Of a stretch of 64,000 nt of DNA, positions 28,440-35,206 are shown in pieces. The notes below the pieces were generated by a model that worked only from the letters and a program-made list of their open reading frames with translations, did not search any database and was not told where the DNA came from. Positions within the stretch are counted from its first letter, which is position 1; each line of letters opens with the position of its first letter. The translations under genes were made by a program, and so were the position numbers. The stretch comes from Bdellovibrionales bacterium (GTDB taxonomy: Bacteria > Bdellovibrionota > Bdellovibrionia > Bdellovibrionales > UBA1609). The stretch spans positions 1 through 64,000 of the forward strand of contig JAWLHR010000002.1 of the NCBI GenBank assembly GCA_041690295.1. The letters are read 5' to 3'.

Positions 28440-29798
28440 TCACATCACCAAGTCGGAACCGAGTTCAAGATTTCTGTGCGGCGTTTTAGTTAAATGGGGG
28501 AATATTGGCAATTGGAGTGTGACTGTCGTGCCCTGACCGAGCGTCGATTCAATACTGAGGCGTCCGCCCCACGATTCAACTGTTTGCCGCGCATGAAATA
28601 ATCCGAGACCCGTGCCATTTTTTTTGCCATAGGTCCGACCGGGCTGACCCAGTAGCGGCAAAACCTCTTTGGGAATTCCCCGCCCGTTATCTTGAACCTT
28701 AATGGTAATGAATGCCTGGTGGATATCCACGATGAGGCGCACACAGCCGTTTTCAACTATGGCTTCGACCGCGTTGTTAATTAAGTTCGAAAGTACACGT
28801 TTAAGTTCGACGGGATTCACTTCGGCGAGCGCAGAATTATTGGTGGAGTTGAATTCGATCTTCACGCCTTCTCTAATCTGCAATTGCAATTCGCTAAGGA
28901 CTTCTTGTGCTAAACGATTGACGGAGCATGGAACTTTCACCGATGGATGTGCGGATTCGCCCTTGTATTTCTTTAGGAGATCAGAGGCGATCTCCTCGAT
29001 CCGAGTGATCGCCATCTTCACAAGCCGAGCTTTTTCGGAAGGAAGATGATTGAACTCCTTTTCCATGATTTTCAAAGCGCTGAGAGGGGAACGAATGTCG
29101 TGCGCTACCTGGGCGGCGAAGGTGGCCGTGGCACTTAGTCTCGCTTTTTCCACTTCCAACTGTTTATGCTCCAAAACTCTGCGCGAAGTTTCATTGAACG
29201 CCTGAATCGAGTCGCGAACATCGGCAAAGCGGCTCTTCTTATTCAAGACGAAGCTGCGACCAAGCGCGAGTTCAGAGAGGCCTCGGCTGAACTCCGAAAG
29301 AATCATTTGAACATACCGAGTGATCGCGAATGCGATCATTGCCACGGCGATCATGGCGAAAATCAATATGCTGATTATCTGAAACTTAAATTTAGCAGCG
29401 GAGTTTTCGAAATAGGAGACGTCGTAACCTACGGTCAAGGTTCCGAGGTCGGATTCCGTGGAGTTAATGCCAATTTTCTCGGTAACAATGATTGATCTAT
29501 CTTTGTTTTTTGCCAAATCCAGGATCACGTCACCATATTGATTGACAATTTTGACGTACGAGATGATTTCGTCTTTGAAGAGCCGGGACACCACATTAAC
29601 GGTTTCATTGTAGTCGCCGATTTGCATGGATCCCGTTATGAGGTTGGAGATAATTCGCGTTTTCTTGGTCGCCTCGATGGTCAAATCGCGCTGATTTTGA
29701 GTTTCGAACGAGTTATAGACAAGAGTGGCGGCGATAACAGTCGCCACAACGGCCAAAAATGTCGCGAAAAGAATAAGAGTTCTGACCTTAATGCGCAT
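28440..29798 (-). CDS. Orphan membrane sensor histidine kinase
   Basis: Two TMs with a ~110-aa periplasmic domain, H-box VAHDIRSPL, NLINNA, DNGRGI, GTGLGL. No receiver gene is adjacent. Confidence 0.9.
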   Translation of the reverse strand: MRIKVRTLILFATFLAVVATVIAATLVYNSFETQNQRDLTIEATKKTRIISNLITGSMQIGDYNETVNVVSRLFKDEIISYVKIVNQYGDVILDLAKNKDRSIIVTEKIGINSTESDLGTLTVGYDVSYFENSAAKFKFQIISILIFAMIAVAMIAFAITRYVQMILSEFSRGLSELALGRSFVLNKKSRFADVRDSIQAFNETSRRVLEHKQLEVEKARLSATATFAAQVAHDIRSPLSALKIMEKEFNHLPSEKARLVKMAITRIEEIASDLLKKYKGESAHPSVKVPCSVNRLAQEVLSELQLQIREGVKIEFNSTNNSALAEVNPVELKRVLSNLINNAVEAIVENGCVRLIVDIHQAFITIKVQDNGRGIPKEVLPLLGQPGRTYGKKNGTGLGLFHARQTVESWGGRLSIESTLGQGTTVTLQLPIFPHLTKTPHRNLELGSDLVM

Positions 29799-30924
29799 GA
29801 CTCAACCGTATTCTCAATAGAAAAAAATGGGCGCTACCAACCAGAAAAAGGAAGAGAGCGGCCTGTCCAATCAATGGCAAGGGTACAACAGCGATTGCAG
29901 CAAAATAACCAAGGACCAAGAACAAACTGTAGAACATTTTATAGGTTGCGCTCGCGAAATTCGTTTGATCGGAATGTTCCTTCAAGAAATGTCTGAGTAA
30001 GTGGACCTCAAGAGTGGAATTGATTAACCCCGCGACGGCAAGTGCGGCCACGAAAACAATAAGGGACTGAGTGGTTATTGCCAAGCCGAGCGAGGCGATC
30101 TCAAAGGCCACTAAAGCCGGAGCCGCTTTCATCTTGAAGTTTAATTGTTTCGCGATCTGCGCACCCATGATGGCGCTTAACCCAAGTAAAAAAATGACCA
30201 GGCCAAGTGGAAGTCCCCCGCTAAAGCCTTGTTTCTGGAGCGTGACTGGAATGATAGGATTCACGATGCCAAACGCGACAGCGCGGACCGAAATTGCCTT
30301 GAGCAAGGGAGAACTCATGAAAAGCTTCAAGGATGATGAGAGACCCTGAAGGGGTACAATCGAATTTGGTTCCGCGACTCCGGGATTTCGAAATCTGAAG
30401 TTCGTCCAAATTAAAGTGGATAACAAGAGAAGAAAAGTGCAGAAGTAAAAGACGTTTTGATGGGAGAGATTGTCAATCAATAAGCCGCCCAAAAGCACTG
30501 AGCAAATCGAGGCGAAACTTAGAATAATCTGCCAGTTGCCAAGTAGGCGAGCGGAATTCGAATCGGCACGGACTAACATCGCCGGAAACAAACTCTCAAC
30601 GGCGGAAAAGAAACCACGAAATACCGTGAACAATATCAGAACAAAAAGAACGGAAGATGCCTCTTTACCGGATATTATGGTGAGACCGGCGAAAATAATT
30701 GTCGCGAAGATTAACGAGTAGTGTATGGAGCGCGACGTTCCCAATCGATCCGCCGATGAAGCCAGTATCGGGGCCGCAACCACTCCTGGCAACTTCTGTA
30801 TGGCAAATAAAAACGCCCAAGCCCATTCCGTGGTCATCGCTTTTTCGAAAACCATTCCCATGGGGATCAGTGCGATTGCCGATCCGACAAGCGCGCAAAA
30901 ATTAGCGATTAACGGAACTAGCAC
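29788..30924 (-). CDS. MFS transporter (exporter-like)
   Basis: About 11-12 hydrophobic segments and motif A-like ASSADRLGTSRS. Overlaps both neighbours. Confidence 0.8.
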   Translation of the reverse strand: MLVPLIANFCALVGSAIALIPMGMVFEKAMTTEWAWAFLFAIQKLPGVVAAPILASSADRLGTSRSIHYSLIFATIIFAGLTIISGKEASSVLFVLILFTVFRGFFSAVESLFPAMLVRADSNSARLLGNWQIILSFASICSVLLGGLLIDNLSHQNVFYFCTFLLLLSTLIWTNFRFRNPGVAEPNSIVPLQGLSSSLKLFMSSPLLKAISVRAVAFGIVNPIIPVTLQKQGFSGGLPLGLVIFLLGLSAIMGAQIAKQLNFKMKAAPALVAFEIASLGLAITTQSLIVFVAALAVAGLINSTLEVHLLRHFLKEHSDQTNFASATYKMFYSLFLVLGYFAAIAVVPLPLIGQAALFLFLVGSAHFFLLRIRLSHAH

Positions 30925-33423: not shown

Positions 33424-33454
33424 GGCCTGCTTGTTTGATGGAGAATAGGGGTCG

Positions 33455-35206
33455 ATGCGGTTTGCTTTGGTATCAATGCCTCTATTCTCGTGCCATAAAC
33501 CGAGTCTTCAGCTAGCCCGCATTCAAGGCCAGGTGCGAAAGCTCGGGCATGAGGCTCAATGCTTTTACCTCAACGTTCATTTTGCAGTTGAAGTCGGGCC
33601 AGGGCTTTACAACGCCATCTATGAAAACAGTGACATTTTGCTTGGGCATTGGCTGTTTTCTCGGGCGGTTCCCGAGGTCAACACCAGTCCAGAATCCGCT
33701 CGTGAGTATCTGAAAGAATTTTCCTCACGTTTCAAAGGTCTGGAGGAGCGTCTTTTTGAACTTCATGATCAGGTAGCCCCAAACTTTATTCAAAGATGGG
33801 CACGCCAAGAAAATTGGGGTGAATTTGATTTCATCGGGTTCACTTGCACGTTCTCACAGCTTGTCCCTGCTCTGGCGCTCGCCCATGCTATCAAGAAGAT
33901 ACATCCTCATGTGAAAATCGTTCTTGGTGGGGCCGAAGTTCAATCCCACATGGGCGAAGAAGTCTTGCGACAGTGTTCTTATGTCGACTATGTGGTCGAT
34001 GGAGAAGGTGAAAACGCCGTTGCGCAATTAATCGAAACACCTTCCCGTGGCGTGATTAAGAGTGAGGAACCGGTCCATTTGGACGATCTTGATTTTCCGG
34101 ACTATGGGGAGTTTTTCGATTTAGTTGAGGGATTGAACGACGAAACCATTTTGGGAAACTCCTACGCTATTCCAATCGAAGGATCCCGCGGTTGTTGGTG
34201 GGGCCAAAAACATCATTGCACGTTTTGCGGATTGAATGGCGAGGATCTCAAGTTTCGTCGCCGTTCCGCGGATTCGATTTATAATGAGATCGTCACCCAG
34301 TCTCGCGCCTACGAACGATACGAATTCGAATTCGTCGACAATATCCTCGATTATAAGTTGCACGAAACTCTTTTGCCGAAGTTGGCGGCCAACAGGGGAA
34401 GCCTTAAATTTTTCGCGGAAACGAAATCCAATTTGAAACTTGAAGATGTATTGCAGTTTAAGAACGCGGGATTTTTTGCGATTCAGCCGGGAATCGAGTC
34501 GCTCAGTACAAAAACGCTTCGAATTATGAAAAAAGGAGTTACGGCCTCACAGAACTTGGATTTGCTGAAGTGGGGTACGCAGCATGGAGTTCGCATCATC
34601 TGGAACCTGTTATATGGATTCCCGGGCGAAGCGGACCAAGATTACCGCAATTTATCAGAGATTCTTAAGAAGATCGTCCATCTACAACCGCCTCAAGCCG
34701 CGGGTCGAATTCGGATCGACCGCTTTAGCCCTTACTTCAATGGTATCAAAGATCGACGATCGTCTGATTTCGATGAGTTGGGCCCGGCGAAGGCGTACAG
34801 CTTGATCTATCCTTCCCATTGGAACCTCTGGGATTTGGCTTACTTCTTTGAGGGCCGCGCCAAGAATAACGTTCAAACAGAGACTTACAATGAGATCTCA
34901 GAGATCGTGAATCGATGGGTATCAAGTTGGACAGCCTCATCAAAACCTTCCTTGGTTTTTAAAAGGGCGATCGGACATGGTCACGTCATTGACCAGCGCT
35001 CGGACCAATCGGATGTTTTTCAGCTGGACGGTCCGGCGTTTCAGATCGCCGTTTGCTTGAGTGAAAGCAGCAAGACTATCGAAACGATTTCTCGCCAAAC
35101 CGGAATTTACCAGGAAACCGTTGAAGAAATCATCGGCGATCTGTCGGATTTGGGTTTTTGTGTCGAACTCGATGAAAAAATAACTTTTCTTCCATTGCTC
35201 GATTAA
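33455..35206 (+). CDS. Cobalamin-dependent radical SAM C-methyltransferase, RiPP maturation type (PoyC/bottromycin RSMT-like)
   Basis: ALVSMP..PSLQL, B12-binding GFTCTFSQ...IVLGG...GEGE, SRGCWWGQKHHCTFCGLN (CX7CX2C), IQPGIESLS, WNLLYGFPGE, IDRFSPYF and a C-terminal winged-helix/RRE-like region. Confidence 0.9.
   Translation: MRFALVSMPLFSCHKPSLQLARIQGQVRKLGHEAQCFYLNVHFAVEVGPGLYNAIYENSDILLGHWLFSRAVPEVNTSPESAREYLKEFSSRFKGLEERLFELHDQVAPNFIQRWARQENWGEFDFIGFTCTFSQLVPALALAHAIKKIHPHVKIVLGGAEVQSHMGEEVLRQCSYVDYVVDGEGENAVAQLIETPSRGVIKSEEPVHLDDLDFPDYGEFFDLVEGLNDETILGNSYAIPIEGSRGCWWGQKHHCTFCGLNGEDLKFRRRSADSIYNEIVTQSRAYERYEFEFVDNILDYKLHETLLPKLAANRGSLKFFAETKSNLKLEDVLQFKNAGFFAIQPGIESLSTKTLRIMKKGVTASQNLDLLKWGTQHGVRIIWNLLYGFPGEADQDYRNLSEILKKIVHLQPPQAAGRIRIDRFSPYFNGIKDRRSSDFDELGPAKAYSLIYPSHWNLWDLAYFFEGRAKNNVQTETYNEISEIVNRWVSSWTASSKPSLVFKRAIGHGHVIDQRSDQSDVFQLDGPAFQIAVCLSESSKTIETISRQTGIYQETVEEIIGDLSDLGFCVELDEKITFLPLLD

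Follow-up and report, generated by a model that had tools for sequence, protein, structure and literature searches.

Background

Signalling by modified peptides is textbook knowledge for Gram-positive bacteria, and systems such as ComQXPA and agr keep precursor, modifying enzyme and sensor kinase together in one mobile block. CBP, the partner of the kinase ChiS, is a family 5 binding protein. Here we describe a six-gene block in the genome of a Bdellovibrionales bacterium (assembly GCA_041690295.1, contig JAWLHR010000002.1; the 64,000-nucleotide stretch analysed is called the window), which we read as a horizontally acquired cassette that would make, export and sense a peptide made on the ribosome and modified after translation (RiPP). 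The linkage of the genes is directly visible and every biochemical step is predicted; we give the reading as a whole a probability of about one half. Two described systems are of particular relevance to it. For clavusporin, the published account (PMC10849626) describes a CX7CX2C enzyme, MpcB, which requires the DUF5825 protein MpcC and puts beta-methyl groups on Pro, Val, Ile and Thr within a 13-mer core, together with an S9 peptidase cutting after Arg, a major facilitator superfamily (MFS) exporter, and products that are surfactants. A second report (bioRxiv 10.1101/2020.01.10.902320) describes CBP as binding ChiS directly and controlling it.

A six-gene unit and its C-methyltransferase

The original prediction had placed six open reading frames (ORFs) at 28440..35206 of the window, in a tight divergent layout with short gaps or overlaps in the leftward operon, and both the positions and the layout are borne out:
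28440..29798, minus strand, sensor histidine kinase, 452 aa (HisKA/HATPase, without receiver domain)
29788..30924, minus strand, MFS transporter, 378 aa (61 bits vs cut-off 33), inferred exporter
30902..32461, minus strand, family 5 solute-binding protein (SBP; SBP_bac_5, 157 bits vs cut-off 32), OppA/MppA-like
32473..33180, minus strand, class I S-adenosylmethionine (SAM) methyltransferase (MT), 235 aa, ATC start
33316..33423, plus strand, candidate precursor, 35 aa
33455..35206, plus strand, predicted B12-dependent radical SAM (rSAM) RiPP C-methyltransferase, TIGR03975

The leftward genes are spaced by +11 (MT-SBP), -23 (SBP-MFS) and -11 nt (MFS-kinase), and the 35-aa ORF lies 31 nt before the rSAM gene. 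As also claimed, profile searches of the block recovered no permease, ATPase, protease, cyclase or response regulator; an S9 peptidase and a second rSAM were likewise absent from it.

The rSAM is a member of the peptide C-methyltransferase family TIGR03975, against which it scores 505 bits (cut-off 281.85). Its motif is C247-x7-C255-x2-C258, with all three cysteines invariant in 114 sequences, and it contains a B12-binding domain (PF02310, 43 bits vs 32). It is 33% identical over residues 1-488 to MpcB, which itself scores 624 on TIGR03975. The enzyme had earlier been likened to the PoyC/bottromycin type; PoyC stands as a more distant parallel, and the clavusporin system (mpc) proved to be the closest one characterised. 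The last 90 residues of the rSAM resemble DUF5825, a putative peptide-recognition domain, with an Atlas value of 0.91 to a DUF5825 cluster, and so does the tail of MpcB; direct comparison of the rSAM tail with MpcC by hhalign gave an E of 0.0019 with a probability of 14%, and Pfam returned no match. Outside the block, contig C1 encodes an oligopeptidase-B-like S9 enzyme with a hydrophobic N-terminus, oligopeptidase B being an enzyme that cuts after Arg or Lys. The host genome encodes further B12-binding proteins and no BtuB above the cut-off.

That the six genes form one inserted, jointly travelling low-GC unit is evident from their surroundings. The GC fraction of the block is 0.471 as against 0.531 and 0.539 in its flanks, placing it among the lowest 5 of 426 genome windows. 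The dacB neighbourhoods of 12 of 17 genus relatives were compared: in 10 of these 12 loci an SBP gene and dacB, the host genes on either side of the block, directly adjoin each other head to head as an empty site, and the remaining two have neither the host SBP gene nor the cassette. Horizontal acquisition is the best explanation of the cassette. Four independent studies contain near-identical pieces of the block, and where these cover it neither indels nor stops are seen.

The binding protein and kinase as partners

The SBP has an N-terminal hydrophobic signal segment and no transporter genes beside it. Its best matches in the PDB are oligopeptide binders, including PrgZ, OppA and MppA. Among its best 16 relatives, taken from a 401-genome phylum sample in which 30 other genomes matched, a kinase lies directly downstream in 13 and probably in two more, with ABC permeases in a single case. 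A quick tree of 46 SBPs places the window protein in a clade with kinase-linked SBPs (SH-aLRT 97), apart from 11 ABC-linked or host SBPs, the branches being long. Judged from these sequences, SBP and kinase are partners by descent, the SBP coming from a kinase-linked, transporter-less lineage. In the same tree the SBPs linked to YcaO, to DUF4135 and to other cassettes form separate clades; SBP subfamilies thus track the type of maturase, as expected if each binds the product of its own cassette.

PrgZ is known to hand its peptide to the Opp permease, and the SBP might similarly pass a peptide to a host Opp/Dpp permease while the kinase acts independently. The likeness to PrgZ, OppA and MppA and the presence of several complete family 5 ABC operons in the genome are compatible with such uptake, but the linkage of SBP and kinase genes across the phylum and the separation of this SBP lineage from the ABC-linked ones make it very improbable.

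The kinase has predicted transmembrane (TM) helices at residues 9-27 and 141-159 enclosing a periplasmic domain of ~110 aa, followed by His233 in an AHDIRSP motif and the HATPase domain. Its best relative (P0129, 41%, 663 aa) has a receiver-like tail.

Candidate precursor peptide

The 35-aa ORF is the weakest link of the cassette reading. The ORF (MKSTDKSKKSSKFIKKSQRKSHLVAPKTVELRGFC) has an N-terminal half rich in Lys and Ser, and an alternative in-frame ATG at 33295, with GGGGAGG upstream, would allow a 42-aa form. An ATG ORF of at least 35 codons arises by chance in ~20% of shuffles of the spacer, so that its size alone proves nothing. The ORF could accordingly be incidental, with rSAM and MT methylating another protein or a small molecule that is then exported and sensed. 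Besides the chance expectation of ~0.2, this is favoured by a codon score of 0.014, below that of the cassette genes (0.10-0.15) and above off-frame values, by the lack of homologs noted below, and by the many generic TIGR03975 loci that show no obvious adjacent precursor. Against it speaks a rare start signal: TAGGGGTC followed by ATG occurs three times in the 2.9-Mb genome, and two of these are the starts of the 35-aa ORF and of the rSAM gene. The ORF, moreover, stands to the rSAM gene as mpcA does to mpcB, a sister cassette (L153) has a 45-aa Lys-rich ORF at the equivalent position, and the SBP is of a peptide-binding type. On balance we regard an incidental ORF as improbable.

Upstream of the candidate precursor, at 33240-33255, GAGGAGG precedes ATG TGA; this start-stop element shares the reading frame of the peptide ORF. 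A perfect TATAAT lies further upstream at 33224-33229, with no clear -35 element.

Methyltransferase and transporter

The reading frame of the MT contains no ATG, GTG or TTG before 33060, and a start at 33060 would remove the SAM-binding motif. AGGAGG lies 5 nt before ATC at 33178-33180, and in the sole homolog found (P0127, 30% identical and equal in size at 235 aa) Met1 aligns with this ATC codon. This spacing and alignment suggest that the MT starts at ATC, or else that the start has suffered a mutation or an assembly error; the latter is possible at 33178-33180 since the contigs available for comparison stop short of the codon. Two elements precede the leftward operon:
33186..33212, minus strand, AGGAGG ribosome-binding site (33186-33191) with an overlapping 7-bp inverted repeat CTAATCT-N9-AGATTAG, unique in the genome
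33227..33256, minus strand, sigma-70-like promoter TTCACA-18-TATATT, a consensus match only

The inverted repeat may be an mRNA hairpin or an operator. Promoter and terminator scans were at chance level (10 sigma-70-like sites in the region vs 7.4 expected), and no RNA run was among the sequencing runs listed for the block.

The nearest solved relatives of the MT include the N-terminal peptide methyltransferase CypM (E 4e-6), a weak pointer to possible N-methylation. On the daptide-type model NF041820 the MT stays below the cut-off (46.5 vs 175 bits), as does its homolog P0127 (43.9), and no MT ortholog was found in 389 genomes of the class. The MFS protein has ~11 predicted TM helices; it belongs to the same superfamily as MpcT and matches it at chance level only (E 0.026). 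In 52 loci, mostly kinase or SBP neighbourhoods, neither MFS nor MT had a significant relative, apart from one weak MT match.

Junctions of the insertion

A 7-bp direct repeat, ATTCATC, without assigned strand, marks the two ends of the block:
28435..28441, left junction, overlapping the kinase stop codon
35206..35212, right junction, overlapping the rSAM stop codon

The repeats are suggestive of a target-site duplication, an equal match being found in 3.7% of random window pairs. They also bear on the principal rival reading, according to which a unit that worked in its donor arrived here clipped, so that the kinase receiver was lost at the junction, the MT start decayed and the signal goes unread. 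The kinase stop overlaps the left repeat precisely where relatives run on into a receiver domain, and in 106 of 150 kinase relatives the HATPase is followed by a tail of more than 100 aa. Furthermore, the receiver-less kinases behind the nearest SBP relatives mostly adjoin a regulator gene, the MT has its ATC start behind the hairpin, and two other cassettes of this genome are split (an SBP on C19, a kinase on C14). However, all reading frames of the block are intact, also in the covered parts of the near-identical pieces from the four studies; receiver-less relatives do exist (P0131, 457 aa); and the genome's other cassettes also lack an adjacent regulator, which fits a shared regulator acting in trans. 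We consider a clipped copy unlikely.

Three skip joints seen in one sequencing run (depth 2-5, 30-nt sides) were judged likely artefacts. The insertion parts the host SBP gene (26943-28433) from the gene at 35273-36682, which form the head-to-head pair in relatives, and consequently each now stands at the tail of a cassette operon, with gaps of 6 and 66 nt; dacB retains a TATACT box. In most genus relatives (L122-L129, L131) a ~305-aa receiver-domain gene separates lspA from the host SBP gene; it is missing from the window (26934-26943) and from G007 and G009. The signal peptidase II encoded at 25999-26934 of the window carries an additional C-terminal domain of ~160 aa, paralogs of which occur elsewhere in the genome. 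Farther away, at 50608-61989, four large minus-strand ORFs (1099, 280, 1180 and 1235 aa) interrupt the dcw cluster between murD and ftsW; they had no NCBIfam match.

Related cassettes

Three independent searches, with the rSAM (P0002, 49%), the SBP (P0122, 49%) and the kinase (P0129), had top matches for which the same longest contig, 20,498 bp in size, is listed; for another pair of matches, rSAM P0075 and kinase P0132, it is one of 73,047 bp in both cases. From the matching contig sizes we infer that the rSAM/SBP/kinase trio is co-located and conserved in another lineage. The C-terminal end of P0002 is a DHp stub of a kinase (residues 607-661, AHDLRSP) with 37% identity to the window kinase, and this fused fragment is either a recombination scar or a decoy domain.

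Closer to home the rSAM is rare: no ortholog was found in 383 other genomes of the order, and 400 genomes of the phylum yielded one distant member, beside YcaO. A distant TIGR03975-like gene (L137, G536:C11) has YcaO and a 91-aa protein as neighbours, and an acidic ORF of 56 aa lies upstream on the opposite strand. A clade-pattern genome scan returned seven distant rSAM loci, none with the window layout, and a viral scan gave no match.

The kinase, in turn, leads to a larger family. Forty kinase loci were taken in rank order from 152 family matches (this genome and most loci near contig starts being skipped, and kin not being independent): SBP_bac_5 was among the two upstream genes in 24, and another SBP type in four more. 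YcaO, DUF4135 or rSAM was also present in 10 of the 24, and no maturase was detected in 14. Over all 40 loci the counts were eight for YcaO, two for DUF4135 and three for rSAM, several of them below curated cut-offs and LanM-like enzymes being among them. An ABC ATPase was found once; 30 further genes were scanned, and among these seven loci had a sigma-54 regulator.

The sister cassette L153 realises an equivalent design with another enzyme, combining its 45-aa ORF with DUF4135, SBP, kinase and MFS genes. Four more SBP-kinase cassettes occur in the genome of the window: one has YcaO plus an exported ORF of 54 aa, another a second rSAM, the third a 70-aa ORF together with a 291-aa protein, and the last an MFS gene. 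The individual arrangements are as follows. L105 (G000:C4:133462-137294) has the 54-aa ORF with a signal-like N-terminus, an orphan SBP5, YcaO and the kinase, and adjoins a 298-aa ORF that looks transposase-like by eye. L103 (G000:C19:21762-25920) comprises a radical SAM gene, a 101-aa exported ORF, an SBP5 split into 406 and 123 aa, and a kinase; ~2 kb away lies an operon of a PLP enzyme, a methyltransferase, an ATP-grasp ligase and an MFS protein. L107 (G000:C3:218900-222304), L140, L157, L161 and L163 share a small exported ORF, a ~280-290-aa protein without Pfam match, SBP5 and kinase. The SBPs of these five loci form one clade, on account of which the ~280-aa protein may be a novel maturase family. 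L104 (G000:C14:72669-76823) has SBP5, a kinase split in two ORFs, a divergent MFS gene and no maturase; its SBP groups with those of the DUF4135 cassettes, and it is possibly a listen-only remnant. In a very common sister operon (L134, L135, L190-L204), SBP5 and kinase are joined by a response regulator, of sigma-54 type where scanned, and by an alpha/beta hydrolase, a ~115-aa exported protein and an ICMT/PEMT-like membrane methyltransferase.

The window layout is therefore one rare variant of a widespread and apparently undescribed peptide-signalling cassette. Of the original prediction, the peptide make-export-sense reading gains from the TIGR03975 membership of the enzyme, the cohesion of the six genes, the co-occurrence of rSAM, SBP and kinase, and the kinase-linked ancestry of the SBP, but the layout is not unique to this locus. 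Its supposed novelty has to be shifted likewise: in literature searches from which subscription journals were largely absent no publication on this kind of cassette was found, but the design returns with other maturases, both elsewhere in this genome and in the wider family.

A further alternative makes the peptide an effector, namely a clavusporin-like cationic surfactant or antimicrobial; SBP and kinase would then sense a cue of another kind (peptides from prey or the environment, for instance) or protect the producing cell. Surfactants are what the closest characterised enzyme makes (PMC10849626). The peptide shares with MpcA an R|K-13 residues-R spacing with 5/14 identities (post hoc, p ~0.01-0.03), overall similarity being at chance (p 0.59), and the 14 of 24 SBP-kinase pairs without a detected maturase also accord with this alternative. 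However, SBP subfamilies follow maturase type, and the core is far less hydrophobic than that of clavusporin; an effector is decidedly unlikely.

Proposed mechanism and its weighing

Under the make-export-sense reading, a rightward transcript would yield the 35-aa peptide, which may be bound through the rSAM's own C-terminal DUF5825-like domain. With SAM and cobalamin the rSAM would then beta-methylate residues of the C-terminal half, the candidates by analogy with MpcB being Val, Pro and Thr in LVAPKTV. A host protease would remove the basic leader, perhaps the oligopeptidase-B-like enzyme cutting after Arg19, the class I methyltransferase would N-methylate the freed amine, and the MFS protein would carry the product to the periplasm. 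There the family 5 SBP is proposed to bind it and, in the manner of CBP acting on ChiS, to switch the kinase by way of the latter's small periplasmic domain. The kinase would signal to a regulator encoded elsewhere, and in its relatives through their own receiver domain. In a cassette family that also employs YcaO, LanM-like and SPASM enzymes, maturase and binding protein would be the exchangeable parts that confer identity.

Several observations weigh against this scheme. MpcB needs MpcC, and no DUF5825 gene is present in the window genome, which is 99.9% complete, the positive control on the mpc plasmid scoring 253 bits. None of 48 downstream ORFs at generic TIGR03975 loci was DUF5825 either (one ORF per locus, picked at 48 of 56, and possibly in the wrong frame in GC-rich DNA), so its absence beside the rSAM is not unusual. 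The 35-aa peptide has no homolog in NCBIfam, Pfam, the protein collection, the Atlas or plasmids. Conservation extends, by the matching contig sizes, to rSAM, SBP and kinase, leaving aside precursor, MT and MFS, and the MT search gave no match listing the 20,498-bp contig. The synteny of rSAM homologs thus has a mixed outcome: the trio appears to lie on that one contig, but among the metagenome matches listed, generic TIGR03975 loci (31-38%), many of them on short contigs, had MT, SBP or MFS matches in 0/80 and a weak kinase match in 1/80. Of 20 strain variants in cassette genes, 11 change the amino acid and nine are silent, at low depth. The kinase is without a receiver domain and the block without a regulator, and for the cassette-type sigma-54 regulators no clear ortholog is present in the genome (best 32-42%, generic); this copy may no longer have an output component. 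Finally, the cassette encodes no outer-membrane channel or receptor, which leaves cell-to-cell travel unexplained; the loop may be confined to the periplasm or use host channels.

Significance

The enzyme family is already known, and the logic of the system resembles peptide quorum sensing and SBP-controlled kinases. What is new here is the rare methylation-only, MFS-exported variant of the cassette. A literature search from which subscription journals were largely absent gave no account of a RiPP cassette that combines a kinase with an orphan family 5 SBP, or of TIGR03975 in such a setting. Should the SBP bind what its own cassette makes, a periplasmic binding protein would here be reading a peptide autoinducer, and a clavusporin-type C-methyltransferase would have its first signalling role. 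Tentatively, one may envisage private peptide languages in a two-membrane lineage, built from one SBP-kinase receptor design and interchangeable RiPP enzymes, with a C- plus N-methylated, signal-peptide-less, MFS-exported peptide as the dialect here. Given the enzyme's need for B12 and the lack of an outer-membrane gate, such a signal could, besides kin density, indicate how much cobalamin is available or whether the cell is confined (for a Bdellovibrio-type predator, as the host is presumed to be, within its prey). The system is small, with a 35-aa substrate, one rSAM and one soluble receptor, and the published MpcBC protocol hence makes it tractable in E. coli. Whether TIGR03975 enzymes work without a DUF5825 partner is a further question on which it bears.

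Comparison with known systems

With the polytheonamide enzymes PoyB and PoyC (PMC11285071) the window shares a B12-rSAM, the CX7CX2C motif and beta-methylation of a ribosomal peptide, here predicted. It differs in having a tiny precursor, no long proteusin leader and no epimerase, and the likeness to PoyC is one of motif and chemistry. Nor is an NHLP/Nif11 leader recognisable, the peptide matching no Pfam or NCBIfam model. Unlike Opp/Dpp ABC importers, the window SBP has no permease or ATPase genes alongside. With CBP-ChiS and LuxP-LuxQ the cassette has in common the pairing of a periplasmic binding protein with a membrane kinase, known in the window from gene linkage; here, however, the cell itself would make the ligand, a modified peptide in place of a sugar or AI-2, and the kinase is without receiver or DNA-binding domain. 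Precursor, modifying enzyme and sensor kinase in a mobile block recall ComQXPA and agr, in contrast to which the window system has an inferred two-membrane host, a soluble periplasmic detector and no cognate regulator in the block.

The closest parallel remains clavusporin (mpc, Streptomyces clavuligerus), with which the window shares a TIGR03975 CX7CX2C rSAM, a short precursor directly upstream (here a candidate), an MFS gene and methylation-only tailoring, here predicted. The block has neither the DUF5825 partner nor the S9 peptidase, and is hence not an mpc cluster; its peptide has a basic leader where that of mpc is acidic, and no acidic follower. Beyond everything found in mpc, the window block adds a class I methyltransferase, an orphan SBP and a kinase.

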